Assembly: GCA_963766735.1 (NCBI GenBank)
Contig: CAVYBU010000008.1
Location: forward strand, 96,001-160,000
Length of the DNA: 64,000 nucleotides
Direction: 5' to 3'
Source: an uncultured Chloroflexia bacterium
GTDB lineage: Bacteria > Chloroflexota > Limnocylindria > Limnocylindrales > CSP1-4
In this document: positions 45,392 to 64,000 of the stretch, piece after piece
Layout of the letters: each line of letters begins with the position of its first letter
Position numbering within the stretch: position 1 is the first letter of the stretch
Notes under the pieces: generated by a model
The model's input: the letters and a program-made list of their open reading frames with translations, nothing else
Told to the model about the DNA's origin: nothing
The model's database searches: none
Made by a program: the position numbers and the translations under genes

Positions 45392-46981
45392 TCAGGGGCC
45401 GGGCGACGGCGGTGGCAGCGAAGGCGACGGCGGGGCCATCAGCGAACGCTCGAGCTCACGGTCCAGCCGGCGCTTGGTCAGCCACAGGTACGCAACCCCG
45501 AGCAGGATCAGCGCCAGGACGATCACCATCGCCGCGCGCCGGAAGTTCGTCTCATCGATCTTCGCGGTCGCGAGCGCCTTCGCGTCCCCGGCCTTGGTCA
45601 CGGCATCGGCGGACAGCTCGGCAATCGACGTGAGCTTGGTCGTGTGGACGGCCGCCTGGGCCTGGATCAGGCTCGTCTTGGCCCCGGCCAGCGCCACCTC
45701 GGCATCGGAGGTGATCATGCCCAGCCCCGCGGCATGCTGGATCTCGTCCTCCGCGTCCAGGTAGGCCTCCTCGGCGCTCGTGACCGCGTCCGAGATCCCC
45801 TCGATCTGCGAGTAGATCTGCGAATCCGGGTGGTGGCAGGTGTCGCACCGCCGGTTCTCCGGTTCCTGGAACTGGTCGAGCTCCAGGCGCAGCGTGTGGT
45901 TCTGCAGGTCATGGCACGTGACGCAGGCGTAGTCGGGCGGCGTGGGATGGAAGAAGAGCTCCGAACTCGGCTTGGTGACATCGTGGGTGCCGTGGCAGGT
46001 CCAGCACTTCGGGGCCACGGCCTGCAGCTCCGAGTGGCGGCTCTCCATGTACAGGTCCTGGGTCGCCGTGTGGCACTTGCCGCACACGTCGACCACGGTC
46101 GTCGACGTTGGCGGCTGGGCGTCGTGGGAGCCGTGGCAGCCCACGCAGGACGGTGCGCGAAGGTCCTTGTTGTCCAGGAGCGCGTGACCGTGAACGCTCT
46201 TGGAATAGACGTCGTACTGGTCGGTGGGGATCCCGTACGGCTCCATGCGCTTGGCGTCGGCGTGGCAGCTGGCGCACAGCTCCGGCACGTTGAGCGCAAA
46301 GGTCTTGGCCGTCGGGTCAGAGACCTTCTTGACGTCGTGCACCCCGTGGCAGTCGCTGCAGACGGCGACGCGAACGTCGTTGTTGACGATCAGCTGCTGG
46401 CCGTGGACGCTGGACCAGTACTTCGCGTACTGGTCGGTCGGCAGGCCGGACGCCTTCATCGTGTCGACGCTGGCGTGGCAGCTGCCGCACAGCCCCACCG
46501 TCCCCTGGCGGTCGGGCGCCCCCACGAAGCCGATCGCCGGGTCCATCGCCTTGGTGATCTGGTCCGATCCGGGATCGCCGCCGTGGCAGTCGGCGCAGGT
46601 CACGCCGCCCTGGCCATGGACGCTGTCCTGCCATTGGGCCGCGATATCCGCCTGCTTCGCGTTGACCGCGTTGTGGCAGTCGTAGCAGCCGTTCTCGCCC
46701 CCACCATCCGGGTGGGCGACCTGCGGCGGAACCGGCGGCGCGGTGGCAGGGGGGATCGTCGCCGTTGGAGCCGGCGTCGCGTACATCCACTCGGTGTCCG
46801 ACGGGCCGGGCGTCTGGGCGGCGGGCGCCGAAGCTGATGGGGACGGGGACCCCGCGGCGGCCGCCGACGGGCTCGGGCTCTCAGCGGAGGCCGAGAACGC
46901 GACCGCGAACCACGCGAGGCCGGCGAGGGCGAGCGTGCCGCCGAGCCGGACGAGCCGGCGCACCCTGGGCTGGTGGAGCAT
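45392..46981 (-). CDS. Decaheme c-type cytochrome, signal peptide plus C-terminal TM anchor
   Basis: 10 CxxCH (CYDCH, CADCH, CGSCH, CSDCH, CASCH, CVGCH, CGKCH, CWTCH, CVTCH, CDTCH). Confidence 0.93.
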   Translation of the reverse strand: MLHQPRVRRLVRLGGTLALAGLAWFAVAFSASAESPSPSAAAAGSPSPSASAPAAQTPGPSDTEWMYATPAPTATIPPATAPPVPPQVAHPDGGGENGCYDCHNAVNAKQADIAAQWQDSVHGQGGVTCADCHGGDPGSDQITKAMDPAIGFVGAPDRQGTVGLCGSCHASVDTMKASGLPTDQYAKYWSSVHGQQLIVNNDVRVAVCSDCHGVHDVKKVSDPTAKTFALNVPELCASCHADAKRMEPYGIPTDQYDVYSKSVHGHALLDNKDLRAPSCVGCHGSHDAQPPTSTTVVDVCGKCHTATQDLYMESRHSELQAVAPKCWTCHGTHDVTKPSSELFFHPTPPDYACVTCHDLQNHTLRLELDQFQEPENRRCDTCHHPDSQIYSQIEGISDAVTSAEEAYLDAEDEIQHAAGLGMITSDAEVALAGAKTSLIQAQAAVHTTKLTSIAELSADAVTKAGDAKALATAKIDETNFRRAAMVIVLALILLGVAYLWLTKRRLDRELERSLMAPPSPSLPPPSPGP

Positions 46982-46998
46982 CGCTGTCCTCGGTCATC

Positions 46999-48079
46999 TC
47001 AGCTGACGTAGCCCCAGATCGTGAACACGATGAGGCCGACGATCACGAGGGTGGCTCCCGCGACGGCGATCTTGCGCCGGCGCATCACGACCTCCGGGTT
47101 CCGGTCCAGGAACGGCCAGATCACGAGCACCGCGACCCCGACGATGGGCACCATGATGCCGATCACCTTGATCGGGATGACCTTGAGCAGCTGGTAGACG
47201 CCGAGGTAGTACCACTCCGGCTTCGTGTGCTCCGGCGTCTGCAGCGGGTTCGCCTGCTCCTCCAGACCGGCCGGGAAGACCGAGGCGAGGACGACCAGGA
47301 TCGCCAGCAGGACGTACCAGGCCATCAGCTCGTCGATGATGTAGTGCGGGAAGAAGGGCCGCTGGGGCTCCTTCTCGATCTCGGGCGTCATGACGCGAGG
47401 CTCGGGGCGCTTGGGGTTCGCGAGGCCGAGCTGGTGCACGAGGATGAGGTGCACGGCGAGCAGCGCCACCAGGGCCAGCGGGCAGCACCAGGACGTGGAT
47501 CCCGAAGAAGCGGGTCATCGTGTCACCCGTGACATCCGCTCCGCCCCGGAGCAGCAGCAGCAGGGAGTCACCGATGAGCGGCACGCTGCCGGCGATCTCC
47601 GTGCCCACCACCGTCGCCCAGTAGGCGAGCTGGTCCCAGGGCAGCAGGTACCCGGTGAAGCCAAAGGCGAGCGTCACCATCAGGAGCAGCGAGCCGAAGA
47701 CCCAGGTGAGCTCGCGCGGGTACTTGTACGCGGCCTGCATGTAGACCCGCACCAGGTGCAGGACCACGAACAGGATCATCAGGTTGGCGGCCCAGTGGTG
47801 GACGGACCGGATCAGCCAGCCGAAGCTGACGTCGCTGGTGATGAACTTGACGCTCTCGTAGGCGGCTTCGGGCGTCGGCTTGTAGTACAGCGCCAGCAGG
47901 GTGCCGGTGGCCGCCTGGATGCCGAACAGGAACAGGGCGATGCCGCCGAAGTAGTACGTCTTCGCTGACATCGGGATGCGGACGTGCAGGCTGGCCCTGA
48001 TGACGGGACCGATCTTCGTCCGCTGGTCGAGCCAGCTGGTGGCCTTGCCGCCGGTGGGGGCCTTTGGGGTGGCCGCCAT
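46999..48079 (-). CDS. Cytochrome b of a Rieske/cytochrome b complex, b6 and subunit IV parts fused (frameshift near 47481)
   Basis: GWLIRSVHHWAAN, FTGYLLPWDQ, RFFGIHVL; shifted frame gives AVHL..HQLG, PFFP, KPEWY. Confidence 0.9.
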
Positions 48080-48080
48080 C

Positions 48081-48596
48081 TCAGGCCTCCGTCAGGTAGA
48101 TCTGGTCGCCCTCGACCGACACGGTGATCGGCGCCAGCGGTGCCGGCGGCGGGCCCGAGACGACCACGCCGGTCGCCGGGTTGAAGCGCCCGTCGTGGCA
48201 GGGACACTGGATGGCGCCGATCATGTCGTTCCAGGCGACGACACAGCCAAGGTGCGTGCAGATCGCGGAGAAGGCCTTCACGCCCTGGTCCGTGTTGACC
48301 ACGATCGCGGGCTTGCTCCCCATCGCGACGACCTTGCCGGCCCCGGCGGGGATATCCGCGGTCGTCCCGACCAGGACCTTGCCGCCGCCCGCGGAGGCGC
48401 CGTTCTTCGAGGGGATGAGAAACCCGATGACCGGGGTCAGGACCATGGCGGCCGTGGTCACGATGGTCAGGCCGCCCAGCCAGCGCAGGAAGCCTCGCCG
48501 CGTGGTCTGGCCGTCCGCCTCAGCCGGTGGACCACCACCCTCCGTGGCCGGACCACCACCCTCCGTGACCGATCCTGCGCGGGCCTCTGGTTCCAA
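48081..48596 (-). CDS. Rieske 2Fe-2S subunit with Tat signal/anchor
   Basis: TRRGFL, CTHLGC, CPCHDGRF, SGPPPAPL; TTG start after GGAGGG. Confidence 0.92.
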   Translation of the reverse strand: MEPEARAGSVTEGGGPATEGGGPPAEADGQTTRRGFLRWLGGLTIVTTAAMVLTPVIGFLIPSKNGASAGGGKVLVGTTADIPAGAGKVVAMGSKPAIVVNTDQGVKAFSAICTHLGCVVAWNDMIGAIQCPCHDGRFNPATGVVVSGPPPAPLAPITVSVEGDQIYLTEA

Positions 48597-48820
48597 TGCG
48601 CCCTCCGGGCGACGGGAGCACCAACCGCATGGTTGCAGCCCAATGGACGGATTGTGGGCGGTTGCACGGGCACAACAACCTATGGGTCGATATAGAAAAG
48701 GCACATTCCGGGTGACACATGGCCCGCCGCCGGAATGACCAGCGGCCCTGAGGCGCGCAGGCATCCCGCAGTCGCCGGTGCTCAGGCGCGCGCAGACGCC
48801 CGGCGCTCAGGCCCGGCGGG

Positions 48821-50575
48821 TCAGGATCTCGGGGTCAGTGGCCACGCGACACCAGTGGGAAGGTCCGGCAGCGTCGTGCCCTCCGTGCCTTCCTCGGCGC
48901 CTCCCTCCGTGCCGTGGAACGACGGCGACGTAACGGGCAGCACCGGATCCGCGTGGCAGCGGGCGCAGTACACGGGCTGGTGGCAGTAGGCGCACGCCGT
49001 GTTGCCCTGGTCGCGGATGACCTTGGCGTGGTTGGTCGACATCGTGTCGTGGTCCACGGTGACGGCGCCCGTGGCGTGGCAGTTGACGCAGTAGTCGCGG
49101 GCGTGGCACTCGCCGCACGAGTTTCCACCCGGGTCGATGTCGGTCGACACGTCCTTGTGGCTGAAGACCCACAGGTCATCGGCGTGCGTCGTCGGCGGCT
49201 CGCCGAGCGGCAGGCTGGCGACGGCCGGTCCGATCTGCGGGAACGTGTGGCAGGTGCTGCAGGCGGACGGGATGGTCTGCCTGGTGGCCACGCCATCCTT
49301 GACCAGGAAGTGGCCGCCGTCGTGGCAGCGGAAGCAGCCGGGGAAGTCCATGTGCCCCAGTTGGTTCGGGTACGTGCCGGGGGTGACGCTCATCTCCGGC
49401 GTCGACGACACGCGGTGGAGGGCCTTGATCTGCTCGATCGCATTGTCGATCTGGGCCGCCTTGGAGGCCGCGACGTCCGGGTAGTTGGCCGCGTAGAAGT
49501 TCTGCAGCTTGTCGATCTCGGCATCCGCCGTCGCGTCGTCCGGGTAGCCCGCCCACAGGAGCCGCATCCCTTCCCGTTTGATGTACGGGAGCGTGGAGTC
49601 GATATCGCCCTTGAACAGCTCGTAGTCCATGTCCGTGCGCGGGTTGGGGATGGCGTGCCCCGCCCGGTTGTGGCAGTCGTAGCACGTCATCAGGCTCATC
49701 GTCTCGGTTTCCAGGATCGCGTCGATGTCGGGCTGGACGTCCTCGGCAACGCTGATCTTGTCCTGGGCGATGAACTCCTGGGTCGATCCATCGCGACCCT
49801 CGGATACGACGTAGTCGATGGTGGCCTTGTGCTCGTCCGGCGAGGCGAACGTGAGCTCGCGGATGACATGCCAGTGCACGCCGCGCTCGGCATCGAGGGC
49901 ATCGCCGCCACCTGGGCGGATCATCAGCCCGACGAAGTTACGGGTGTTCGGCTCGTCCTCGAGGAACTGGGTGCTGGCCTTGAGGACCGCGAGGGCCTCC
50001 CGCTCAACGTCATGGCACTTGTCGCAGGTGTCGGACGCCTTGGGCAGGAGCGAGTGCTCGGGGGGCAGGATCGGCGTGGGGTAGGTGCCCAGGACGACGC
50101 TCACCAGCTGGCGGGTGCCGCTCATCTTGGCCTTGATCCAGCCGGCGATGCCCGGTTCCACGTGGCACTCGCCGCACGTGACCTCGGCGTGGGCGCCGGT
50201 CTTGTAGGCCTCGAGCTCGGGGTCCATGGTGTGGCAGCGTCCGCAGAAGTCGGCCGTCTCCGTCCAGTGGACCAGCGAGACGCCGGTGAACACGCCGACG
50301 AAGCCGAGCGCCCCCAGGATCAGCAGCAGGGCCAGCAACCCGCCCTTGGAGCTTGGGAGGTGGATCCGGCGGCCACGCAGGTAGAACGGGTTGCGGCGGC
50401 CACGCAGGTAGAACGGGTTGCGACGACGAGCCTTGGCGGGTTCAGAAACCCCCTCGGTCGCCACGGGCGCCTCCGCCCCCTTGGAAGGCCCGGCAACCGG
50501 CTCGTCACCGGCCCCCGGCGGCGTCACCCCCGCTTCGGCGGGCGGCAGGGCGTCGGGCGTCTCGGGGTCGCTCAT
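48821..50575 (-). CDS. NapC/NirT-like membrane-anchored decaheme cytochrome c
   Basis: TM helix then TETADFCGRCHTM..H..VTCGECH; 10 CxxCH in total. Confidence 0.9.
   Translation of the reverse strand: MSDPETPDALPPAEAGVTPPGAGDEPVAGPSKGAEAPVATEGVSEPAKARRRNPFYLRGRRNPFYLRGRRIHLPSSKGGLLALLLILGALGFVGVFTGVSLVHWTETADFCGRCHTMDPELEAYKTGAHAEVTCGECHVEPGIAGWIKAKMSGTRQLVSVVLGTYPTPILPPEHSLLPKASDTCDKCHDVEREALAVLKASTQFLEDEPNTRNFVGLMIRPGGGDALDAERGVHWHVIRELTFASPDEHKATIDYVVSEGRDGSTQEFIAQDKISVAEDVQPDIDAILETETMSLMTCYDCHNRAGHAIPNPRTDMDYELFKGDIDSTLPYIKREGMRLLWAGYPDDATADAEIDKLQNFYAANYPDVAASKAAQIDNAIEQIKALHRVSSTPEMSVTPGTYPNQLGHMDFPGCFRCHDGGHFLVKDGVATRQTIPSACSTCHTFPQIGPAVASLPLGEPPTTHADDLWVFSHKDVSTDIDPGGNSCGECHARDYCVNCHATGAVTVDHDTMSTNHAKVIRDQGNTACAYCHQPVYCARCHADPVLPVTSPSFHGTEGGAEEGTEGTTLPDLPTGVAWPLTPRS
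50367..50420. repeat. Exact 27-bp tandem duplication (NPFYLRGRR x2)
   Basis: CGGCGGCCACGCAGGTAGAACGGGTTG x2. Confidence 0.9.
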
Positions 50576-50582
50576 CGCGTCC

Positions 50583-51182
50583 TCAGTTCATCAGGGCCGC
50601 AACGGCGCGGTCCATCTCGTCCCTGGGGAGCGCACCGATCCGGACCTCCCGGACCTTCCCGTCAGGGCCGATGAAGAAGTGGGTCGGGATGCCCATCGAC
50701 CGGTAGGCCGCCGCAATGTCGGCATTCGGGTCCACCACGATGGGGAAGGTCAGCGCGGCCCTGCCGGCGTACCCGCTGACATCCTCGGCGGTCTCGTTGA
50801 TGAACACGCCCAGGACCACCAGGCCCTGGTCCTTGTTCGCGCGGTACGTGGCCTCCAGGTCCGCCGACTCGGTCCGGCAGTCGGGGCACCACGAGGCGCC
50901 GAACGTCAGCCAGACCGGCTTGCCGGCGTAGTCCGAGAGCGACACGGTCGTGCCGTCGTAGGTGACGCCGGTGAAGTCCGGCGGGACCGCGCCCACCACG
51001 GGGGCAGCGGCAGCCGCCCCCTCGCCCAGGTCGATCTGGGTCACGCCGTCCGATGGCCCCTGGCCGCTGGCCGCGTAGACGAGGACCCCGATCACGACGA
51101 CCGCGATCACGCCGATGCCGATCGTCTGCAGCCGGCCGGCCGTACGCCCGGAGGACCGGGCCGTGGTTCCCGCTGCGCTCAT
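50583..51182 (-). CDS. resA: TlpA/ResA thiol-disulfide oxidoreductase
   Basis: N-terminal TM, ASWCPDC, GIPTHFFI. Confidence 0.88.
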   Translation of the reverse strand: MSAAGTTARSSGRTAGRLQTIGIGVIAVVVIGVLVYAASGQGPSDGVTQIDLGEGAAAAAPVVGAVPPDFTGVTYDGTTVSLSDYAGKPVWLTFGASWCPDCRTESADLEATYRANKDQGLVVLGVFINETAEDVSGYAGRAALTFPIVVDPNADIAAAYRSMGIPTHFFIGPDGKVREVRIGALPRDEMDRAVAALMN

Positions 51183-51211
51183 GGTGCCCTGACTCCCTTC
51201 GTGCCGTCGGC

Positions 51212-52123
51212 TCAGCCGAGGCCGGAGTAGCTGTGGAGCCCGCCGAAGAACAGGTTACCGAAGTAGGTGAACAGCGTGGCCGCGAAGCCGATCACGAGCA
51301 GCACTGCCGCCCGCTTGCCGCGCCAGCCGCGCATGACGCGGGCGTGGAGGTAGGCGCCGTAGATGAACCAGGTCACGAGCGACGCGGTCTCCTTGGGGTC
51401 CCAACTCCAGTAGCTGCCCCACGCCGTGTCTGCCCAGACTGCGCCGAGGACGATCGTCAGGGTGAGGAACGGGAAGCCGACGATGACCGCGCGGTACCCG
51501 ATGTCGTCCAGCACGTCCAGCCGCGGGAGGCCCCAGCCGCCGGGCTCGTCGCGGTTCGTGACCCAGGCGATGAACACCTGCAGCAGGTACAGGACCGACG
51601 CGGCGAAGGCGATGGTGAAGCTGCCGTAGGCGACGATTGCCACCGCGACGTGGACGGTCAGCAGGAGGTTGTTCTGCAGGGCCGGGACGAGCGGCGCGAT
51701 GTCGGCCGGAATGGTCCACGCGTAGAGCAGCATCGCGAGCGCGACCGGCATCGCGATCAGCGCGAGGATGCGCTGGTGATACCGGCGCTCGAACAGCATG
51801 TAGGCGAGCAGGATCCCGAACGCGAACGCCATCGAGAACTCGTACATGTTCGTGAACGGGCCGTAGCCGGTCGCGATGGTTCGGAACACGAGGCTGGCGA
51901 GGAGCGTGAACACTGCCAGCCAGCCCAGCATCGTGGCGTAGCGCCCGATGGCCGCCGTGCGGGGCCCGGAAGTGATGCCCACGGATCCGCTGGTCACGGG
52001 TGCACCGGCCGTCTGCATGCGGGCGGCCCGGAGTCCGGACACCGCGTACATCAGGTAGAAGATCGTGGCGAGCCCGGTGCTCAGCATCGCCGCGATGAAC
52101 ATGTACCCCGAGAGCTTTTCCAT
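51212..52123 (-). CDS. resC: Cytochrome c synthase, System II (ResC/CcsA)
   Basis: PFTNMYE, LVPALQ, HV, WWD domain GAVWADTAWGSYWSWDPKET, GLHSY. Confidence 0.95.
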   Translation of the reverse strand: MEKLSGYMFIAAMLSTGLATIFYLMYAVSGLRAARMQTAGAPVTSGSVGITSGPRTAAIGRYATMLGWLAVFTLLASLVFRTIATGYGPFTNMYEFSMAFAFGILLAYMLFERRYHQRILALIAMPVALAMLLYAWTIPADIAPLVPALQNNLLLTVHVAVAIVAYGSFTIAFAASVLYLLQVFIAWVTNRDEPGGWGLPRLDVLDDIGYRAVIVGFPFLTLTIVLGAVWADTAWGSYWSWDPKETASLVTWFIYGAYLHARVMRGWRGKRAAVLLVIGFAATLFTYFGNLFFGGLHSYSGLG

Positions 52124-52136
52124 GGCGGGGACTCCC

Positions 52137-53603
52137 TCAGCTCTGCGCCGGCGTCTGCAACGCCGCGCGAATGTCAGTGACCAGGTTCTCGAAATCGGTG
52201 GCCTGGGAAACGTCCTTGGTGGTCAGGGTGGCCATGCCGAGGACCGCGCCCCCGTTCGGGCGGGCGACGATGCGGCCCCAGACTCGCTTGTGGCGGATCA
52301 TAAAGCGGATCGAGAAGCCCCCGAACAGCAGGAGCGAGCCAATCCAGATGAACAGGACCCCGGGATCGCGGGCCACGTTGAGGCCGGTGAACTGGGTCTC
52401 GCGCTCGAAGGTGACCGTGAGATCACCCAGCTGGGTGGCCACGCCCTGGTCGATGATGCCGTCCGCGATCTGAGAACCCTCACCCGCGGTGTACAGCTCC
52501 GCCTGGATCTGGCCGGGCTTGATCATCCCGTCGCCGCTTCCCAGCGTGCCCACCAGCCAGATCACCTCGCCGGCGCCCGGGACGGTGAACGAGCCCACCG
52601 GCCGGTTGTCCGCGTTCGTCCGCCACGCGAGCGGCACGCCGCCCGAGTAGAGGATCTCGCCCGCGGCATCCTTGACCGTCATCACGGCCGCGGCCCCGAA
52701 GAAGGCCTGGTAGAAGGTGAGGTTTCCGTAGCGGTACGGATCGTTGACCCGCACGGTGTGGCGGTCGATCTCGGCCCCGTCCTTGAACACGACGATCTGG
52801 CTGGCGTAGTCGATCGGCGAACCCGTGACAGTGTCGTACTTGTCGGTGAAGTCGATCAGCTGGACGCTGAGGCCCGGTTCGGCGACCACGGGGAGCGTCT
52901 GCCCCTCGGCGACCGTGAACCCAGCGTCGCGATAGCCGAACATGCCGCCGATGATGGCGCCCGCCAGGATGACGACGATCGAGACGTGGGCGATCAGGCC
53001 CGCCCACGCTGCGTACCGGAAGCGGTCCCCGTAGAGGTGGATCGCGCCGTCGTCGGTCGAGAGGAAGCGGAAATGGCGGCCTCGCATGACGCTCTCCACG
53101 ATCGCCAGCGTCTCAGCGGGGGTATGCCGGACGACGATGGCCTCGTGCTGCGGGGCGTGCTCGAAGAACTGCGGCCCCACGTCCACGCGGGGCTTGGTGG
53201 TGGTCCGCCAGATTCCAGGGATCCGGTGGATCGAGCAGGCGATCAGGCTGATCGTCAGGCCCGCCACCAGGATCCGGAAGAGGATCGAGTTGAAGACCTC
53301 GAACATCTGGATGGTGTCCAGGAACCCGGTCCACCCGCCGTACTTGGGACGGATCTCATCCAGCCAGTTGGCCTTCGCGTCGGCACTGACCAGGACCCCG
53401 GGAGGCGCCTGGATGATGAGCGATCCGACGACGCCGAGCGCGGCGATGGCCAGCATGAGCACCATGGCCGTGCGCATGGACGAGAGGAAGTGCCACAGCC
53501 CTTCCAGCGCCCGGTCGACGCGATCCATGAACGAGGGCCCCGCCGCCGCGGCGGCCGGAGCGCCATTCGGCGGAAGCGGCCGGGTGTGGACCTCTTCGGT
53601 CAT
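52137..53603 (-). CDS. resB: Cytochrome c biogenesis protein ResB/CcsB
   Basis: LSSMRTA, GSLIIQ, AH, VNDP, FYQA, RDPG. Confidence 0.92.
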   Translation of the reverse strand: MTEEVHTRPLPPNGAPAAAAAGPSFMDRVDRALEGLWHFLSSMRTAMVLMLAIAALGVVGSLIIQAPPGVLVSADAKANWLDEIRPKYGGWTGFLDTIQMFEVFNSILFRILVAGLTISLIACSIHRIPGIWRTTTKPRVDVGPQFFEHAPQHEAIVVRHTPAETLAIVESVMRGRHFRFLSTDDGAIHLYGDRFRYAAWAGLIAHVSIVVILAGAIIGGMFGYRDAGFTVAEGQTLPVVAEPGLSVQLIDFTDKYDTVTGSPIDYASQIVVFKDGAEIDRHTVRVNDPYRYGNLTFYQAFFGAAAVMTVKDAAGEILYSGGVPLAWRTNADNRPVGSFTVPGAGEVIWLVGTLGSGDGMIKPGQIQAELYTAGEGSQIADGIIDQGVATQLGDLTVTFERETQFTGLNVARDPGVLFIWIGSLLLFGGFSIRFMIRHKRVWGRIVARPNGGAVLGMATLTTKDVSQATDFENLVTDIRAALQTPAQS

Positions 53604-53617
53604 ATCCGACTACCTCC

Positions 53618-54410
53618 TCAGAGACCGAAGGGCGACCCGAGGGTCGCCAGCCGGCCGAGTGTGTTGGTGAGCATCAGGACGCCGAGCAGCACGAGCAGGA
53701 AGCCCGTGACCACGTCGACGGCACGGTGGTGGCGCCCGACCACGGTCAGCCGCCGGGAGACCCAGGACGCGCCCAGGGCCACCGCCAGGAACGGGATCGC
53801 GAGGCCCGCGGCGTACGCGACCAGGAGCACGGTCCCCTGCAGGACGCTCGACGTGGCCGTGGCCAGGCCGAGGATCCCGCCCAGGATCGGGCCGATGCAG
53901 GGGCTCCAGCCCGCCGCGAACAGCAGGCCGAACAGGAAGGACCGCGGGTAGCCGGGCCGCTCGCCCGGGCTGGCGATCGACGCGAAGCGCGAGCCCGCCG
54001 GAGGCGCCACCGTTGTCGTCGGAGCCGCCGCCGGCCATCACCAGCCCGCCGCCCATCGAGGGCATGGCGCGAGTGTCGCGCCACAGGGCACGAACGTTGA
54101 TCACGCCCGCCACCTGAAGGCCGAGGAAGACCAGGAGCGCTCCACCGATGGTCGTGAGCACGCGGCGGTCGATGAAGGCCCCCAGGGCGCCGATCACGGC
54201 GTAGAAGGCGACGAACACGAGCGAGAAGCCGATGACGAACGAGAGCCCGTGCATGAAGGCCGGGCGGCGACCGGTGGTGCCCTCACCGGTCGCGCCCATC
54301 ATGTAGCCGAGGTACGCCGGCACGAGCGGGAGGCAGCAGGGGGACGCGAAGGACACGACGCCGCCGATGAAGGCGATGCCGATGCCCAGGATGCTGCCGA
54401 GCTCGTTCAC
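53618..54410 (-). CDS. ccdA: Cytochrome c biogenesis protein CcdA (frameshift near 54020)
   Basis: SFASPCCLPLVPAY in one frame and GWSPCIGPILG..GLAIPF in the other. Confidence 0.9.
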
Positions 54411-55624
54411 GGCACCGTGCTCGCCGCAGGCGATGCGGAGGGGGCCGGGGTGGTGCTGAGGGCCGGGGATGCGGCGGGCGAGTTGCCGGGGATCATCGAG
54501 GACTGGGCCAGCGAGTCGAGATGCGACCGGACGGTCTGGGCAAGAGGCGAGGTCGGGTCCAGGTCGATGACCGTGTTCCACTCGCGCTGGACCGCGGTCC
54601 AGTCCGGGGGCGTCTGGTTCAGGTACAGGAAGCCCAGGTCGTAGTGGGCCTCCGCGTTCTTCGGGTCGATGACCAGGACCTTCTTCCAGGTCGTCTCGGC
54701 GGCCGGCAGGCTGCCCAGGTTGAAGCTGACGGCGCCACGGGCCAGCATGGCGTCGACGTTCTCAGGCTCAATGGCGAGGAGCTTGTCGAGCCAGTTGCCG
54801 GCGTCCGCGTACTGCTCACCCGCGTAGTACTCGTCGGCGAGGGCGAGGAGTGCGACCGTGTCATTGGGGTTGGCGGCAAGGCTTTCCATCAGCGAGCTGA
54901 CCTTGGCGAGATCGACCGCCGGCGGCCCCTGGGTGGCCTGGGCCACGGCGCCGGGCTCCTGGGAATCGCCACCGATCGCGCCGACGACCTGTATCCCGCC
55001 GAACCCGACGGCGACGATGGCGATCACGGCGACGCTGGCGATCACGAGCCGCTTCCAGGGGTTGGCGGCCTGGGGAGCCGTGGCCGCTGCGGCGGCTGCC
55101 GGGCGGATGGCCTTGCGATGCTGGATCGGTGCCGCGACCGGGCGCGTGGCGGCCTTCGGCTTCGGCTTGGCATCCGGGAGCATGTCCGGGTGGGCGCTCG
55201 GGGTCACCGATGCGTAGAGCAGCGCGAGGTCGTCCGTGTCCGGGTCATCGGCTGTGGGCTCGATTCCGGCGTCCGCTGCCGCCAACGCTGCTGCGGGGAT
55301 GGGGTCTGTTGCCGGAGCGGAGCCCCGGCGGGCCGGAGGTGTCGCCGGCCCGCCGGGTACGACCGCAGGCGGCCTGGCCGGGCTCCTGAGGGCCGAGCCC
55401 TGGAGGCCGACTGGGTCGGTCAATTGGAGGTACGCCTCGTCCAGCGCCGTGGCCTGGGCGTGAGCCCACCGTCGGAGCTCGGGAGGCGCGGACGCGAGGT
55501 ACTGGCTCGCGGCCTGGTGGAGGTTGTCGAGATCCTCGGGGGAGGCGCTCTTCGGGAGTCCGAGCCGGGCCAGCAGCTCGTTCTCTGCAGCGGACCCTGA
55601 GGTGGGGAGGCCGGGGCCGGTCAT
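54407..55624 (-). CDS. Membrane-anchored TPR protein (CcmH/CycH-like C-terminus)
   Basis: Central TM helix followed by TPRs (NPNDTVALLALA, DPKNAEAHYDLG). Confidence 0.82.
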   Translation of the reverse strand: MTGPGLPTSGSAAENELLARLGLPKSASPEDLDNLHQAASQYLASAPPELRRWAHAQATALDEAYLQLTDPVGLQGSALRSPARPPAVVPGGPATPPARRGSAPATDPIPAAALAAADAGIEPTADDPDTDDLALLYASVTPSAHPDMLPDAKPKPKAATRPVAAPIQHRKAIRPAAAAAATAPQAANPWKRLVIASVAVIAIVAVGFGGIQVVGAIGGDSQEPGAVAQATQGPPAVDLAKVSSLMESLAANPNDTVALLALADEYYAGEQYADAGNWLDKLLAIEPENVDAMLARGAVSFNLGSLPAAETTWKKVLVIDPKNAEAHYDLGFLYLNQTPPDWTAVQREWNTVIDLDPTSPLAQTVRSHLDSLAQSSMIPGNSPAASPALSTTPAPSASPAASTVP

Positions 55625-55821
55625 CGAAGACCTCCCCGGGGGCGCGGGCGGGAAGCGGCGCGCGCCGACGTGCGATACATCGTGGAACCCTCATCTGATG
55701 CCGCGGGGGACCGCGGCTTGACACCTGCCCTGATTGTCGGCGGCAAGCACCCATGCGCCCATCCGTCGGGGCGCACATTTCGGCCGGGACCTGGACGGGC
55801 TAATGGGTGGAGAGAATCGAA

Positions 55822-55849
55822 ACCCCCTGTACCGGTCGATACAGGGGGT
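55822..55849 (-). terminator. Hairpin downstream of the octaheme gene
   Basis: ACCCCCTGTA-N8-TACAGGGGGT followed by TTCGATTCT on the minus strand; could instead be an operator. Confidence 0.55.
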
Positions 55850-55881
55850 GATTGGAGAGGCTCGGATGCGGGCGCAGAGGA

Positions 55882-58254
55882 TCAGGGGCTCGTCGGCAGC
55901 GCGTAGGTGTAGTCGACGTGAGACTTGCCGTGGCAGGTGAGGGTGCAGCTGCCCCATGCGGTCGGCGTCGCGGCCCTGAACATCTCGTTCGCGCCGTGCG
56001 GGATTACGTTGGGAGCGAAGTTCACCAGGCCGGTCGCTGGCGCCTGCCCATTCACGGCGAGGGCAGACCCGTGGATACGGAAGTGGCACTCCGCGCAGAT
56101 GGCGTTGCCCTGGCCGGCGCCGCGGACGTCGATGTCGCGGCCACCGACACCGTTGCCGGAGATCTCGTTCATGTGGTAGCCGTGCCAGTTGAAGTTCGTG
56201 TCGGCTCGGTAGTCGGCGCTATCGTCGACCATCGGCGCTTCCGCATGGCACACGTAGCAGAGCGCGAAGTCCTGCGCCTGGTAGAGCCCGCGCGGCCTGA
56301 GGTCTCGATCCCTGTACGGCGCGATCAGGATCCCGCGGTTCGGTGAGGCATGGTTGCTCAGGATCGCGTCCGCGGCCGGCTTCGGGACCTGAACGGTCGC
56401 CGAGGCGTCGCCGTGGCAGTTCTCGCAGCGGACGGTGTCCTGGGTTCCAAAGACCCACAGCTTGTAGGGGGACGTCCCGGCAAGGCTGAGCGCCATTGCG
56501 TTCGTCTGGTTCTTCCCCGCGGCCTCCACTGGGTGATAGGAGACGTTCGCCGGGTTCAGCTCGATGCCCTTGTCAAGCGACCAGCGACTCGGATGGGTCG
56601 GATCCTGCGCGGGCAGCTTCGTGAAACCGGAGTGGCATTTGAAGCACAGCTGGTACTCGAAGCCGGACGTGTTCTGAAGCGTGTAGGTCGGCGCCTCACC
56701 GGCCGCGCCGTTGACCACCGCGACGCCGGACGCACCGGCGATCGCACCGGAGGCCGACCAGCCGCCGACGCTGTTCACGGGTCGCGTGGCGTCCGCGAGG
56801 TGCGGCTGGTGACAGTCTCCACAGGCGCTGTGCCGGTCCAGCGTGGCGCCGAACTCATCCTCCTTGCCCGAAACGTGGCTTGAGGGCGACGTGGCCGGGT
56901 GCGAGTACCACGACGACGTCGTCGGGTCGTTCGCCGGGAGCGACGAGCTGGACCAGTCGCTCTGGACGTCGCTCGACGCGCCCGTGCCGTCGTGGCAGAC
57001 GAAGCAGGTCGTCGACTGGGGGCCGGACTGCTGGAGCAGCATCAGCCCCTGGGCATCGTGGGCCGCGTGGCACGAGGCGCACGCGTCTGAGGCCAACCCG
57101 GAGATGATGTGCGGCGAACCTCCGGCGGCGGCTGCCGCGACGGACGTCTGCAGCGCGTACGTGGCCGTCGCGCCCCTGCCGGTCGACGCTGCCAGAGAGC
57201 GGGCGGTCGAACCGATGGAGGGGTCCAGCCGGTAGAGGGGGACGGGCTTGTCAACGGGCTTGCCCTTGCGCTGTCCGGGCGACAGGTCGAGGGACGGCTT
57301 GGTTCCCAGGGCCAACTCCGCCTCGGCCCCGGGAAGCTCGGTGGACCCGTCCATGAGGCGGAACAGGTAGTGCGCGCCCCAGTTCGCATCCACGGTGGCC
57401 CGGATGGCGAATTCGATCTCGGTGAAGCTGTGGGCGGGGAGCGTGATTTCCGTGAGCTCCCGGCCGGCGCTGGTCCTGCCCTGGACGGGCGTCGCCAGCG
57501 GATCGGTGGCCTGGCCGAGGCGCAAACCGGCGGCCTCGATCGGCTCCTGGCGCGGATCGAAGACTCGGCCGTCGTCGGACGCGCCGTAGAACGCCTTGCC
57601 CAGATCCGGGTCCACCATGGGCAGGGTCATCCAGTCGGCGGACGCGCCGGAGAACTGAAGCGCCGGCGCGATCGCGGCGTCGGCATCGGAATCGTTGACA
57701 ACCTGGAACCGGACTCGGTACACGGTGAACCGCTGCGCCGCGTCGAGGGGTGCGTCCAGCTGACCTGGGTCGGTCACCGCACCGGCCTCGCTGACGGTAT
57801 CGATCCAGACATGGTCCACACGCGGACCGGTGGGCTCGACCGAGGGCTCAGCGGACGGTTCAACCGACGGCTCGACCGAGGGCTCAGCGGACGGTTCGAC
57901 CGACGGCTCGACCGACGGCTCAACCGACGGCTCGACCGACGGCTCGACCGACGGCTCGACCGAGGGAGCCGCGGTGGGTGCAGCAGACGGCTGGACCGAC
58001 GGAGCCGGGGTGGGCTCGACCGAGGGAGCCGGGGTGGGCTGGACCGACGGAGCCGGGGTGGGCTGGACCGACGGAGCCGGGGTGGGCTGGACCGACGGAG
58101 CCGGGGTGGGCTGGACCGACGGAGCCGGGGTGGGGTCCAGGGCGCGTGCGGCCGGCACGGCGGGAGTCAGCGCTCCCACGGCGCCCGCAAGGACGAGGAG
58201 CACCCCAAACAGGGGACCGGCCCGGCGGCTTGCGGGTCGTTGCTGGCGGTTCAT
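55882..58254 (-). CDS. Secreted octaheme c-type cytochrome with Pro/Thr/Ser repeat stalk
   Basis: Signal peptide (AARA), repeats, non-heme domain, 7 CxxCH plus terminal CTLTCH (CxxxCH). Confidence 0.9.
57832..58135. repeat. Coding tandem repeats, 24-bp (PTPAPSVQ) and 12-bp (PSVE) units
   Basis: Visible in both DNA and translation of the octaheme gene. Confidence 0.92.
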
Positions 58255-58457: not shown

Positions 58458-59673
58458 TTACGGAAGGTACGGGTTCGGGGTCGGTCCGACGAAGTCGCCG
58501 ACCACCATCGTCCCCGTGGGATCGTGACAAGCCTGGCACGTGCCGCGGTTGTCGATCTTCAGGAGGCGAGAGTCGCCCACCGGGGCAGCCGCGCCGCCCG
58601 GGAAGTCCATGTTGGCGGAGTTGTAGCCCGTCATCTGGGCGTTGGAACCGTGCGACACGTGGCACGTGATGCAGTTCCGGGTGGGGTTGAGGGACGTGTG
58701 CCGATACTTGAAGATCGCATCGGCTTCCTCCACATCCCACCCCTGGCTCAGGTAGCGGGAGTGGCACGTGGTGCACCAGTTGGCGATCTCCGTGGTGAAC
58801 GTCGAGGGCATGCCGTTGGGCGCGTCGTTGGACCCGCCGCTCGCGGCATCCCACGGGACGTAGCGCCGGAAGTAGTCACCAGCCGTTGATGACAGGCCGA
58901 GCCCAACAACCTGGCTCGCGTAGAGCGTTCCGGTGCCGCCGGCGGTCTGGATGATGGTGAAGTTGCGCGAGTCGTCGTTCCGGGAGCGGCGCGTCCTGGA
59001 CGACCACTCCTGCAGCCGCAGGCACAAATGCATCGGTGCCGATGGCGACCGGTGCGGGGATGGGGTTGAGGATTCGGTAGTTGCCGTTGCCGTGCGGGTT
59101 GTGGCAGGTGCCACATTCCATCTCGACTTCGGGTCCCGCGTACGCGGCGAGGTCGTTGGGGCCGTTGCCCCAGGCGACGCCGTCGGCCGGTCCCACCACG
59201 CCTGCCACGTTGGGCAGGTGGGCGGAGGTCACCGGCTGCGATCCGGCGGTCCGGACCGGCACCTTGGCTCGCTGGGAGACGTTTGACGTGCCTCTCGGAA
59301 CCGAGAGACGCGCAGCCTCACCCGACCCAATGCGGGCATTGACGAAGCCGCCACCTCGGAGATAGCCAAGAACGACGGAGCCACGGTATGTCGTGGTCCC
59401 GACGCGGTACTGGATGCCGCTCTCGACATCGATCTTGGAACCGAGGCCGGTGGCCCCGTGGCAGGACAGGCAGAGCGCAGTCCCCTCTTCGACGAGGAGG
59501 AACATGCCCTGCGCCGTGTGGGCGCGGTGGCAGCCAGCGCAGTTATCGGAGTTGATCCCGTTTACGCCGCTGTTGTTCGCAGCCACATGTGGTCCACTGT
59601 CTGCGAAGACGGGGACCGCGGCAAGGAACAGCCAAAGACTTCCGGCTGCAATCAGCAACATCAGCCTTCTCAA
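58458..59673 (-). CDS. Secreted hexaheme cytochrome c, OmcS-like (frameshift near 58980)
   Basis: TTG start after AAGGAGGTGA; signal peptide; CAGCH, CLSCH, CGTCH in ORF 58876..59790 and CTTCH, CITCH, CQACH in ORF 58458..59114; about 404 aa when joined. Confidence 0.88.
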
Positions 59674-59777
59674 ACTGTCCTCACCTCCTTTCTCTGTGCT
59701 ACGTGGGCTTGACATTGGCCGCCACGATTGGCGGCGGCGCAGAACTCCGGTATCCACCTCCCTTTGCTGGTTCGGGT

Positions 59778-60848
59778 TCAGTAGCTCCACAACTGCACAC
59801 GGTTGTTGGCGGAGTCGGCGATGTACAGCCGGCCTCGTGCATCGACCGTGATGCCGTTGGGGTAGGCGAAGGCTCCGTCGCCCGAGCCCTGGCTCCCGAA
59901 GCTGCCCAGGTACTCGAGTCGCGACGACCCTTCTTGGTAGCGTCCGAAGACGAAGACGGTGTGACCGGTCGAGTCAGCGACGTAGACCCGACCCTGTCCG
60001 TCCAGGGCCACCCCTCGCGGCAGGCCAAGGTTCCCCTCGCCGGCTCCCCGTCCAACACGGGCGACGATGGCCCCATCCTGACCGTAGACCAGCAGGCGGC
60101 CGTTGTTGCTGTCGGTCACGTACGCGTAGCCGGCATCGTCGATGGCCACGCCGTTGGGAAAGTCGAGGTCATCGTTCTCGCCGAAGATGCGGACCTGCGC
60201 GCCGGATGGATCGAACACCCGCACCCGGCCCGGGACGTCGCCGACGTCGGTGACGTACAGGTTGCCCGCCGCATCGAACGCGAGCCCCAGCGGCTGCCAG
60301 CCCGGGGCGTCCGCTGGCGGGGAAAACGCCCGCAGATAGGCGCCCTGGGTGTCGTAGATGTAGATCGATGCCGTCTGACGGTCCGAGACATAGATCTCGC
60401 CCGTGAGCGGGTTGAGCGCGAGGTAGGTCGGCACGTGGTCGGTGCCCGTGGAACTCGGCGGCAACATGGCCTGCACCTCGTTGCCACCGGTGTCGTAGAT
60501 GCCCGCCGTCTGGTCCCCGGCGGTCTCGCCGATGTAGATCCGCTCGCCGTCAGGCGTCACGGCGACGCTCATCGGACGTGAGGCGCCGTAGATCGACGTC
60601 GTGTACGTGGGCATGATCGTCTCGCCCGGGATCGTCGGGACGGGGATCGGCTGGCGGAACAGCAGGTACCAGATCGCGAGGCCGAGCAGCGCCAGGAAGG
60701 CCAGCAGCAGCATCAGCAGCAGCAGCAGCCGGCGGCGCCGGCGGTTGTCCTCCTCCTCGAGGACGTCCTCCGGAGGGGCCGTGTCGCCCGGTGATGCCGC
60801 CGCGCCTGTCGGGGGGATGGCATCCACGTCGTCGCCGGGAGCGGTCAT
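59778..60848 (-). CDS. Membrane-anchored NHL-repeat beta-propeller protein
   Basis: Repeated P.G.A.D..G..YV.D..N.R units; N-terminal TM. Confidence 0.92.
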   Translation of the reverse strand: MTAPGDDVDAIPPTGAAASPGDTAPPEDVLEEEDNRRRRRLLLLLMLLLAFLALLGLAIWYLLFRQPIPVPTIPGETIMPTYTTSIYGASRPMSVAVTPDGERIYIGETAGDQTAGIYDTGGNEVQAMLPPSSTGTDHVPTYLALNPLTGEIYVSDRQTASIYIYDTQGAYLRAFSPPADAPGWQPLGLAFDAAGNLYVTDVGDVPGRVRVFDPSGAQVRIFGENDDLDFPNGVAIDDAGYAYVTDSNNGRLLVYGQDGAIVARVGRGAGEGNLGLPRGVALDGQGRVYVADSTGHTVFVFGRYQEGSSRLEYLGSFGSQGSGDGAFAYPNGITVDARGRLYIADSANNRVQLWSY

Positions 60849-61906
60849 CAGTTGCTCCCTTCGGCGCTGGGTGACGGCATGACATCCGGGTGAGCCTGTG
60901 TGCCGTCACTCACGCGGCTCAGCCCGAGCTGCGCGGCCTGGCTCTCGGCGTCCAGCTCGAGGGCCTTCCGGTACCAGACCGCGGCCGTTGCCGGGTCGCC
61001 GCTCGCCTCGGCCAGCAGCCCCAGCCCGATCCGGGCATCGACCCCAGCATCACCGTCCGCGATGGCCTCGAGGCGGGCAACCGAGTCGGCCGGGGCGGAG
61101 GACTCACCGGCCGCGAGTACCGCCATCGCGGTGGCCATGGCGTCCGCCCACTCGGCCTCCCCCGCGTCGCCCGTCGCCGTGTAGGCGTCGGCCAGCGACC
61201 GGTACGGATCCGGCCAGCGCGTGGGCACGAACAGGATGGCCTTCCGCAGGGGTTCGAACGCCTCCTCCGGCTTGCCGGCCTTCACGTACGCGGCGCCGAG
61301 AAGGTTCATCGCGTCCGCGTCGGTGCGCTTGATCGCCAGGGCCCTGAGGAGGTTGTCCACGGCGTCGTCCGGCCGGTCCTGCTGCAGCGCGATCTCGCCG
61401 AGCCCGTAGTAGGCGGTCTGAAGCATCGGGTCCACGTTGGCCTGCTCGGTGTCCCTGGCGATCTCGACGACCTTCGCGAAGTCGGCCGCCGCCGCGTCGG
61501 CGTCGCCGGTCTTCTGGAACGCGAGGCCGCGGCTGATGTAGGCGGCCTCGTCCCGCTTCCCGGTCCTGATGATCTCCGAGTACTGCGCAATCGCATCCTC
61601 GTACCGACCTGCCGTGAAGTACAGGTCTCCGAGCCGGCCCCGTGACGCGATGTCGGTTGGGTCCGTGCGGACAGCCTCCTCGACCACCGCCATCTCGCGG
61701 TTCACGATCGAGGGCGCCGGCGCGCGGAATCTGTCAACGGCGTAGAAGGCGACGAAGGCGACGATACCGACGAACAGCAGCAGCGCGAGCCGCTTGATCC
61801 AGCGGTTCAGCTGCGCCTCGGGCATCGAGGTCAGGGACGTGACCCGGGACATGAATGGCACCTGTACTCCTTGGCCGGCGGAATCAGGGAGACCGACCTG
61901 CGTCAA
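60848..61906 (-). CDS. Membrane-anchored TPR protein
   Basis: N-terminal TM plus several TPR units; start may be 61852 or 61825. Confidence 0.88.
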   Translation of the reverse strand: MTQVGLPDSAGQGVQVPFMSRVTSLTSMPEAQLNRWIKRLALLLFVGIVAFVAFYAVDRFRAPAPSIVNREMAVVEEAVRTDPTDIASRGRLGDLYFTAGRYEDAIAQYSEIIRTGKRDEAAYISRGLAFQKTGDADAAAADFAKVVEIARDTEQANVDPMLQTAYYGLGEIALQQDRPDDAVDNLLRALAIKRTDADAMNLLGAAYVKAGKPEEAFEPLRKAILFVPTRWPDPYRSLADAYTATGDAGEAEWADAMATAMAVLAAGESSAPADSVARLEAIADGDAGVDARIGLGLLAEASGDPATAAVWYRKALELDAESQAAQLGLSRVSDGTQAHPDVMPSPSAEGSN

Positions 61907-62081: not shown

Positions 62082-62600
62082 TCAGGCCGGCAGCAATTCC
62101 TTGGGCGTGTCGAAGTTGCCGGGCACGTCCACCTCGATGACGTCGCCGGTGATCCGGATCGGGAACTGCCGGAGGGGCGTGGTGGGCTTGCCGGAGATCA
62201 CGCTTCCGTCCAGGGCGAACTGGCCGTCGTGGCAGTGGCAGGAGAACTGCCCGACGTCCGGGAGCCAGCCGTAGGAGCACAGCCCGTGGGTGCAGCGCGG
62301 GTCGTAGGCGATGATCTCCCCGGAGGACTTCTTCACCAGCCACACGGAGGCGGCCGTCGGCCTGCCGCCCAGGTCCACGGTGAACTCGACCTCCGTGGGG
62401 GTGCCCGGGACGAGGTCGTCCGGGTCGGTGTCCAGCTCCACGGGGACGGGCGGCCCGGCGCAGCCGGCGAGGATGCTGCCCAGGCTGCCCGCCGCCAGCG
62501 CGCCGACGCCGATGAGCAGCAGGACACGACGCCTTGGGACCGGCGTGGTGCGTGGATCGAAGGCCGGTGCGGTCTGCGGCCGGCGGAGGTCGTCGCCCAT
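62082..62600 (-). CDS. Second Rieske 2Fe-2S protein, probable Tat lipoprotein
   Basis: PRRRVLLL..ILAGC, CTHGLC, CHCHDGQF. Confidence 0.9.
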   Translation of the reverse strand: MGDDLRRPQTAPAFDPRTTPVPRRRVLLLIGVGALAAGSLGSILAGCAGPPVPVELDTDPDDLVPGTPTEVEFTVDLGGRPTAASVWLVKKSSGEIIAYDPRCTHGLCSYGWLPDVGQFSCHCHDGQFALDGSVISGKPTTPLRQFPIRITGDVIEVDVPGNFDTPKELLPA

Positions 62601-62613
62601 AACGGGCGACAGA

Positions 62614-63024
62614 CTAGCCCGGAATCGGCGAGGGCTGCAGGCTGGGGTCCGCGTCGGCGGCAGGTGCGGGCTTGCCGGCGGCACCGACCACCGCGCGGAT
62701 CGCGGCCAGGAAGTCGTCCGGGCGGGTGGACAGGGTCTCGCGGCGAAGGGTCCAGGCGCGGGTGGTGGTGATGTCCACGTCCAGCACCACGGGGCAGTCG
62801 GACCGGCGGACGACATCTGCGGCATCAACCGCGCCGCCCTCCTCCACCACGATCACGTCCGGGTCCAGGGCGATGGCGGCATCAACCGCCTCCGTGATGC
62901 CGATGTCCACGGCATCCACGGCCACCCCGGGCTCGGCGGCGAGCATCTTCAGCAGCCCCTCCCCCATCAGGGGATGGCTGTACAGGAGAAGCACGCGCAC
63001 CGGATCTGGCGACACGATGGGCAT
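62614..63024 (-). CDS. Degenerate stand-alone receiver-like protein
   Basis: VRVLLLYSHPLMGEGL..PDVIVVE resembles a NarL receiver without the canonical acidic residues. Confidence 0.6.
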   Translation of the reverse strand: MPIVSPDPVRVLLLYSHPLMGEGLLKMLAAEPGVAVDAVDIGITEAVDAAIALDPDVIVVEEGGAVDAADVVRRSDCPVVLDVDITTTRAWTLRRETLSTRPDDFLAAIRAVVGAAGKPAPAADADPSLQPSPIPG

Positions 63025-63867: not shown

Positions 63868-64000
63868 GCATGTCCTCTGGGTCGAGCTGGACGACGATCG
63901 TCGTCCCGTGTTGCGGGGCAGTCTGCACATCGATGCTGCCACCGATCTGCTCGACCCGCTCGCGCATGGACTTCAGGCCGAAGCCGCCTTCCATGGAGCT
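63824..64000 (-). CDS. NarX/DesK-type histidine kinase, 3' end only
   Basis: Manual translation GGFGLKSMRERVEQIGGSIDVQTAPQHGTTIVV; stop at 63826-63824. Confidence 0.88.
   Translation of the reverse strand, partial: SSMEGGFGLKSMRERVEQIGGSIDVQTAPQHGTTIVVQLDPEDMRGTPSSEAPGAARR

Follow-up and report, generated by a model that had tools for sequence, protein, structure and literature searches.

Does an uncultured Chloroflexia bacterium carry a relative of the Geobacter nanowire subunit OmcS, hidden in a gene that the assembly splits between two reading frames? The gene lies at 58458..59673 on the minus strand of the window, by which we mean the whole 64,000-nucleotide stretch of contig CAVYBU010000008.1 analysed here. 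As assembled it occupies two frames, and read-through gives a hexaheme c-type cytochrome of 404 amino acids. Our answer is a remote yes. The gene probably encodes a bis-His hexaheme cytochrome that is predicted to be exported by the Sec system, that is a remote relative of OmcS and that belongs to a conserved gene cluster for extracellular electron transfer. The break in its frame is likely an artefact.

The N-terminal frame runs from 59673 down to 58981 and reads sensibly to about residue 231. The C-terminal part runs from 58979 down to a stop at 58458, in a frame shifted one base onward. To read through the break, we took the four letters GAAC as a single step. The resulting product, P0003, has 404 residues with 12 cysteines, 12 histidines and six CxxCH motifs (at residues 45, 68, 187, 300, 334 and 379). 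Exactly six histidines lie outside these motifs (29, 52, 152, 194, 325 and 341).

Three of the six motifs have the form CxxCHxxH. On the minus strand, motif 1 is CAGCH (59527..59541), followed by RAH with His52; motif 3 is CGTCH (59101..59115), followed by NPH with His194; and motif 5 is CITCH (58659..58673), followed by VSH with His341. The other three are CLSCH (motif 2, 59458..59472), CTTCH (motif 4, 58761..58775) and CQACH (motif 6, 58524..58538). The initial annotation had described a hidden hexaheme c-type cytochrome with a frame break near 58980, a secreted product of this length, exactly six CxxCH motifs and exactly six further histidines in a particular order. The translation agrees with this description, secretion being suggested by a signal peptide judged by eye. 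Two details needed correction: the gene is on the minus strand, and the break is a gap of two bases, not an indel of one.

The signal peptide predicted in this way covers residues 1-24 (59602..59673, minus strand), with cleavage after VFA. The signal peptide reads MRRLMLLIAAGSLWLFLAAVPVFA and is followed by DSGPH. The hexaheme family conserves an A-D-G-G-P-H junction at this point, with A20, D21, G23, P24 and H25 (P0006 numbering) invariant or almost so. By eye, the sequence has no lipobox cysteine and no C-terminal membrane segment that could serve as an anchor.

The start codon is TTG (59673-59671, minus strand). It is preceded, 7 nt upstream, by the Shine-Dalgarno-like sequence AAGGAGGTGA (59681..59690, minus strand), from which the initial annotation read high expression. 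RNA contigs, from two libraries, match some stretches of the gene at 99-100% identity and give a weak hint in the same direction. The TTG and the 20 bases before it (window 59671-59693) are identical in the window and in six relatives (L003-L008), whose proteins are only 74-79% identical.

Family conservation and remote similarity to OmcS

The hexaheme protein belongs to a large family, spread over Chloroflexota (Limnocylindria-type and Anaerolineae-type) and Actinomycetota. With the read-through protein as query, 1628 of 8000 scored proteins reached E ≤ 1e-3. The 120 closest matches are 55-91% identical and mostly about 400 residues long, and 116 of them have exactly six CxxCH motifs. Their names say at most 'cytochrome c3 family protein' or 'predicted CXXCH cytochrome family protein', and their organism labels are Chloroflexi and Candidatus Limnocylindrales. 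A profile built from 44 natural members and run against 1.84 billion cluster representatives matched 1768 of them at E ≤ 1e-3, 875 at 1e-10 and 363 at 1e-30. Among the 150 top representatives, 109 have exactly six CxxCH motifs, three of them as CxxCHxxH; lengths range from 311 to 874 residues.

What is conserved beyond the heme motifs? Alignment A4 comprises 101 rows, chosen only by the presence of six CxxCH motifs and a length of at most 540 residues. All six non-motif histidines are present in 99-101 of these rows, and no other histidine is conserved among them. Six hemes and six conserved spare histidines suggest bis-His ligation throughout, and hence electron transfer rather than catalysis.

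Family models describe the protein in general terms. The paired-CXXCH model of Pfam (PF09699, E 9.7e-15) matches the N half with 54.4 bits and the C half with 32.3 bits (cut-off 20.6), and TIGR01905 matches the N half with 51.2 bits (cut-off 25.2). Beyond this paired module, nothing in the Pfam and NCBIfam scan rises above cut-off. TIGR03508, the DmsE/MtrA decaheme model, reaches 36 bits against a cut-off of 192.2; the hexaheme protein has six hemes, not ten. An ESM Atlas search returned generic 'doubled CXXCH / cytochrome c3' clusters only. A homologue search with A6, a profile of 38 short, Actinomycetota-type forms, found no name other than 'cytochrome c3 family protein' and no Thermincola. 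The cluster members of ten short forms carry neither organism nor functional names.

A quick maximum-likelihood tree took in 62 of 77 locus proteins, 15 being left out for want of a clean six-motif open reading frame (ORF). It separates a Chloroflexota clade (34 proteins) from an Actinomycetota clade (21, with two Chloroflexota rows) and from a small Anaerolineae-type clade. In alignments A2 and A3, Chloroflexota-type members share a conserved tail rich in Pro (...GPTPxPxxP), about 20 residues past heme motif 6. Actinomycetota-type members terminate two residues past that motif, nearly as OmcS does. Some members of the genus have two paralogues side by side (L011 and L013; also G011:C5 and G023:C43, about 2 kb apart). 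One paralogue of such pairs is 624-640 amino acids long, with large insertions between heme motifs 3 and 4 and between 4 and 5, and keeps exactly six CxxCH motifs.

Profiles of sufficient diversity connect this family to OmcS. The A4 profile matches OmcS (6ef8_A) with E 5e-6 and 29 bits. The match is one collinear stretch that places heme motifs 3, 4 and 5 on OmcS residues 131-341. In a weak extra segment motifs 1-2 are aligned, and the CxxCHxxH histidine of the family falls on OmcS His16. The A6 profile matches OmcS with E 3.4e-4 over OmcS residues 8-248, which hold hemes 1-4.

The predicted structure points in the same direction. A first AlphaFold2 model, made from the shallow alignment A2, was unusable, with a mean predicted local distance difference test score (pLDDT) of 46.8, and was superseded by a model made from the 101 sequences of A4 without templates (pLDDT 86.3, predicted template modelling score 0.83). 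The weights of AlphaFold2 predate the OmcS structure. The low-confidence region of the model is confined to residues 19-60, from the mature N-terminus through heme motif 1. When the model was compared with 48,161 representative chains by VIA-align, OmcS came out on top, with Z 7.8, a root-mean-square deviation of 4.4 Å and 206 aligned residues. The alignment runs over the whole length (model 21-384 against chain 3-407) at 25-27% identity. The runner-up was 6r2q_A at Z 4.9, all others were at 2.8 or below, and 18 chains reached Z of at least 2. A second comparison, on the 336 chains of Foldseek's list, left OmcS alone at Z of at least 2, with Z 7.7.

Several results weigh against a close tie to OmcS. 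Searches of the Protein Data Bank (PDB) with each half by phmmer did not find OmcS at E ≤ 10 and returned a weak match to a chain of the Mtr complex plus noise; profile A2, built from 44 sequences, missed OmcS at the same threshold. By sequence, 6r2q_A, an MtrA-type chain, equals or outscores OmcS (3.8e-6 with A4, 3.9e-8 with A6). These matches are several short repeats of the paired-CxxCH module, with no single collinear alignment. Foldseek against the PDB ranked OmcS first of 339 rows, a match that is not significant (E 0.34, template modelling score 0.23), and Z 7.8 sits in the grey zone (Z < 8) that, according to the tool, unrelated models can reach. The sequence similarity to OmcS is weak. 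The CxxCHxxH...CxxCH arrangement is likewise not specific to OmcS, because it is the general paired-CXXCH module (PF09699) that MtrA-type cytochromes also have. A further structure, 7TFS, which we take to be OmcE, has a paired-CxxCH match at its C-terminus (E 1e-3 with A4, 5.3e-5 with A6).

Taken at its proper strength, the profile and model evidence suggests a remote homologue of OmcS, or at least a protein of the same six-heme architecture and fold class. The initial annotation had drawn the parallel and proposed an alignment as a check. At the remote level the parallel stands, with the diverse profiles A4 and A6 and with the predicted fold; it does not appear when each half alone or profile A2 is searched.

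The frame break in the assembly

If the protein is so well conserved, why is its gene broken? At 58979..58980 (minus strand) two bases of the relatives are absent from the window. In a DNA alignment six of six same-genus relatives carry two extra bases at CTCCCG^GAAC. Hence the true product would be about 405 amino acids long. Intact ORFs at six relative loci encode 405-409 residues with six CxxCH motifs and an identical TTG start; locus L009 is itself divided between frames, and locus L010 is truncated at a contig end. A database protein with 91% identity continues across the break site (...LPGNADSRNYTIIQ...). A programmed frameshift is excluded, since in relatives a single frame holds the whole coding sequence. 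ORF calling missed the gene solely because of the 2-base gap.

The N-terminal part, searched in the relatives' genomes, has a match in 19 of 41 (the window's own genome counted). It is found in 18 of the 24 genomes of the same genus-level group and in none of the 16 genomes of a sister family, whose genomes are roughly 1 Mb in size.

Environmental contigs allow a second look at the site. Contigs from four public runs, two from DNA and two from RNA libraries, were aligned to the gene. Only two contigs bridge the site, both from DNA runs (97% and 92% likeness), and both show two additional bases after 58979 (AC in one, GC in the other). In the two RNA runs the interval from 58947 to 59159 is uncovered, and they are uninformative on the break.

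To see whether the break stands alone, we compared the cluster with the syntenic regions of two relatives, in which some 28 kb of the window had a counterpart with at least 60% identity. In this stretch the sense strand changes frame in two places only, in the hexaheme gene and in ccdA of the same cluster. The ccdA gene (minus strand) has its N half at 54602-54057 and its C half at 53998-53621. Its break, between 53998 and 54057, falls in a Gly-rich linker, and in relatives ccdA is one ORF. Both local breaks are in G+C-rich low-complexity stretches or linkers. Frame changes of plus-strand ORFs in G014 were put aside as antisense ORF artefacts. Upstream of the second of two tetratricopeptide repeat (TPR) genes, 55687-55851 (minus strand) is about 61% identical to relatives in a frame that differs from that of the gene body. 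We did not count it as a third indel, since it precedes the probable start of the gene, and the stop-to-stop ORFs of the relatives may here run over non-coding DNA that is conserved.

A genome-wide comparison used ORFs from twenty 20-kb regions of one relative and matched 115,764 bases of the window's genome. It showed seven frame changes at six sites. Judged by G+C content at codon positions, including the third (GC3), about four of the six sites are inside coding sequence (G000 contigs C2:162093, C3:26356, C8:333089 and C17:188186), among them a gene of the HlyD family and an amino-acid permease. The other two (C7:312712 and C8:1165) were put aside by codon-position G+C as gene boundaries. 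Two breaks in 28 kb do not exceed this genome-wide rate, about four to six in 116 kb, which argues that frame-breaking indels are scattered through the assembly.

We therefore consider an indel error in the assembly consensus quite probable, as intact relatives, bridging contigs with both bases and similar breaks elsewhere, including ccdA, all favour it. Two observations count on the other side. The rpoB and rpoC genes of the same genome are each in a single open frame, so the indel rate of the assembly is not extreme. No contig among the four public runs is identical to the window across 58979, so a real, strain-specific deletion of two bases keeps some probability.

A real lesion would make the hexaheme gene a recently inactivated one which, together with a broken ccdA, marks a decaying electron-transfer cluster. 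We regard this as unlikely. The two breaks do lie less than 5 kb apart in functionally linked genes, but every other gene of the cluster is open and the cluster is no richer in breaks than the rest of the genome. Broken copies occur in other members of the genus too (a split one in G009, and some with TGA stops in G019), which speaks for a real lesion, as do the intact rpoB and rpoC and the missing identical contig. Near-identical environmental contigs are nevertheless intact, and the placement of both breaks in G+C-rich low-complexity linkers speaks for an error of the consensus.

Gene cluster and known systems

The hexaheme gene is part of a minus-strand cluster that extends from about 63.9 kb to 45.4 kb of the window. 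At its upstream end are a LuxR-type response regulator (63175-63942), a second Rieske protein (62082-62828) and a membrane-anchored TPR protein (60848..61906). Directly upstream of the hexaheme gene is an NHL-repeat beta-propeller with an N-terminal membrane anchor (59778..60848; Pfam NHL, 3.9e-31). It is followed downstream of the hexaheme gene by a 790-amino-acid multiheme cytochrome (55882..58254) with seven CxxCH motifs and one CxxxCH, an N-terminal anchor or signal and a repeat linker rich in Pro, Thr and Ser. The PTPAPSVQ / VEPS-type linker, at the N-terminal end of this cytochrome, is encoded by tandem repeats at 57833-58134 (periods of 12, 24, 36 and 60 nt). It looks like a long spacer between membrane anchor and heme domain.

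Further along the same strand are the second TPR protein (54407..55624) and the CcdA/DsbD-type thiol-reductant transporter in its two frames (53621..54602). A System II cytochrome c maturation group (50583..53603) consists of ResB (52137-53603), CcsA (51212-52123) and a thioredoxin-like protein (50583-51182). The cluster ends with a putative quinol-side module (45392..50575): a NapC/NirT-type cytochrome with ten CxxCH motifs (48821-50575), a Rieske protein (48081-48764), a cytochrome b (46994-48079) and a second cytochrome with ten CxxCH motifs (45392-46981).

This arrangement is conserved. We took the 77 best loci from contigs of one genome per species, many of which stop before the distal genes, and searched them for the neighbouring genes by tblastn at 1e-8. 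With strand and gene order preserved, the NHL gene is present in 70 of the 77 loci, the upstream TPR gene in 64, the large cytochrome in 54, the second TPR gene in 53, CcdA in 46 and ResB in 42. The loci are labelled Chloroflexota, Actinomycetota (including Solirubrobacterales and Intrasporangiaceae) and, once, a Deinococcus bin. At least one locus, L057 from Intrasporangium sp. DVR, is not labelled as a metagenome bin; it has TPR, NHL, hexaheme, large cytochrome, TPR, CcdA and ResB in the same order. In the related Intrasporangium calvum an ImcH-like cytochrome with one membrane segment has been described (PMC6295460). NHL and TPR genes beside multiheme genes are also known from Dethiobacter (PMC10376724) and Desulfovibrio ferrophilus (PMC5815863).

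How does the hexaheme protein compare with known systems? OmcS of Geobacter sulfurreducens (PDB 6EF8/6NEF), a hexaheme nanowire subunit, has 407 residues; about 380 mature residues are expected here. Both have six CxxCH motifs in three CxxCHxxH...CxxCH pairs, collinear in order, and bis-His hemes, which for our protein are predicted from sequence. Unlike those of OmcS, the hosts are Chloroflexota and Actinomycetota, which are not known to have a classical outer membrane, and the neighbourhood consists of TPR, NHL, multiheme cytochrome and System II maturation genes. OmcS is a filament subunit, whereas the hexaheme family is known from its genes and a predicted fold.

A closer parallel in cell type may be CwcA of Thermincola (TherJR_1122 / Tfer_0075). 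It is a hexaheme with 18% identity to OmcS that was homology-modelled as a wall-spanning stack, in which heme 5 would be ligated by a histidine of the next subunit (PMC7911101). Compared by description only, the two share a Gram-positive-type cell, six hemes and remote homology to OmcS, and the idea of stacking resembles that of the initial annotation. However, CwcA is from Bacillota, and no Bacillota record occurs in the 77 best loci or among the named family matches.

With MtrA/DmsE-type decahemes (PDB 6R2Q chain A, Mtr complex) the protein has the paired CXXCH module in common, at a structural Z of 4.9. MtrA-type proteins, however, carry ten hemes inside a sheath formed by a porin of the outer membrane. 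OmcE-type filaments have four hemes rather than six, show no whole-length similarity and are absent from the structural matches.

The family lies outside the usual BLAST-based membership of OmcS homologues, as OmcS is not seen by single-sequence search. A published criterion for such homologues (E < 1e-5, coverage > 75%; PMC10954620) does not include the hexaheme protein. The BLAST-listed homologues in that source are from Geobacter, Geoalkalibacter and Anaeromyxobacter, and the words 'Chloroflex' and 'phyla' are absent from the main text. Multiheme cytochromes are mentioned in a preprint on the Chloroflexi supergroup, whereas OmcS and nanowires are not. We found no description of the hexaheme family or its cluster in the literature covered, which did not include Baquero et al. 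2023 and Shen et al. 2025, where OmcS-like proteins of these phyla may already be listed. We likewise found nothing on multiheme cytochromes in CSP1-4 and, judged from titles and the opening lines of abstracts, nothing on OmcS homologs in Chloroflexi that describes the hexaheme family.

Possible roles and significance

What might the hexaheme protein do for its host? We propose that it would be exported by Sec and that the cluster's own System II maturation proteins (CcdA, ResB, CcsA and the thioredoxin) would attach its hemes outside the membrane. It could then relay electrons between the membrane quinol-oxidising module and the large outer cytochrome, across a wall zone without an outer membrane. 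Several subunits might form the relay together, in a short stack or filament like that of OmcS and the one proposed for CwcA, or a single protein docked on the NHL propeller might suffice.

The protein could be a true nanowire subunit of the OmcS type. Subunits would stack head to tail, with heme 1 on the N-terminal arm; His52 of its CxxCHxxH would ligate a heme of the next subunit, and the filament would run through the wall and beyond it. Remote homology to OmcS across the whole length is consistent with this, as are six conserved distal histidines for exactly six hemes, the CwcA precedent (PMC7911101) and a sequence in which we see by eye neither lipobox cysteine nor C-terminal membrane segment. 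According to PMC12954529, an inter-subunit histidine ligand is common to OmcS and OmcE, and the interfacial heme of OmcE is ligated by the adjacent subunit. The CxxCHxxH histidine aligns with His16 of OmcS, if in a weak segment, yet CxxCHxxH is also part of the intramolecular paired-CXXCH module of MtrA-type proteins. Low model confidence at residues 19-60 alone would be expected if the N-terminal arm packs on a neighbour, but low pLDDT in such an arm has many other possible causes. On balance we find a filament of this kind doubtful.

Alternatively, the protein may be a relay that does not polymerise, MtrA- or PdcA-like, tethered to membrane or wall through the NHL and TPR proteins and passing electrons from the NapC-type cytochrome to the 790-amino-acid cytochrome. 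We give this a substantial, though less than even, chance. The NHL gene directly upstream in 70 of 77 loci and the TPR gene in 64 suggest such docking, NHL propellers having been proposed as scaffolds of multiheme complexes in Desulfovibrio ferrophilus (PMC5815863) and Dethiobacter (PMC10376724). MtrA-type chains equal or exceed OmcS in sequence score, but the predicted fold is closer to OmcS (Z 7.8) than to the Mtr chain (Z 4.9). An OmcS subunit is about 5 nm long, and a single unit of about 5 nm may fall short of spanning a thick wall. Catalysis of the nitrite, hydroxylamine or sulfite reductase type is very improbable. The matches to NrfH, NrfB and octaheme families are weak and, like those of all catalytic-family models, below cut-off; a conserved second histidine for all six hemes leaves no open coordination site to be expected; and the neighbours are solely electron-transfer and maturation genes.

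The nanowire reading could be extended to the family as a whole. The family may be the counterpart of the OmcS nanowire in cells without an outer membrane, polymerising by its N-terminal arm via the CxxCHxxH histidine, with the membrane-anchored NHL and TPR proteins, whose genes accompany it in almost all genomes, nucleating or anchoring the filament. For now we hold this to be speculative, and rather unlikely.

The question matters because the only cytochrome filaments with solved structures come from bacteria of the Geobacter type and some archaea, few in number, and in Gram-positive-type cells the evidence for them is a homology model, that of CwcA. A very large, generically annotated hexaheme family of Chloroflexota and Actinomycetota is now linked to OmcS by profile and predicted fold, and it travels with the same TPR-NHL-cytochrome-maturation cluster. 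There is also a practical warning: gaps of the kind that recurs across this assembly, here of two bases, can hide genes from ORF calling. Intrasporangium sp. DVR, which is not labelled as metagenome-assembled, would make the question of cytochrome wires directly testable. If the nanowire reading is true, cytochrome wires would be widespread among the abundant soil bacteria of Gram-positive type, in a family with thousands of members from soil and sediment.

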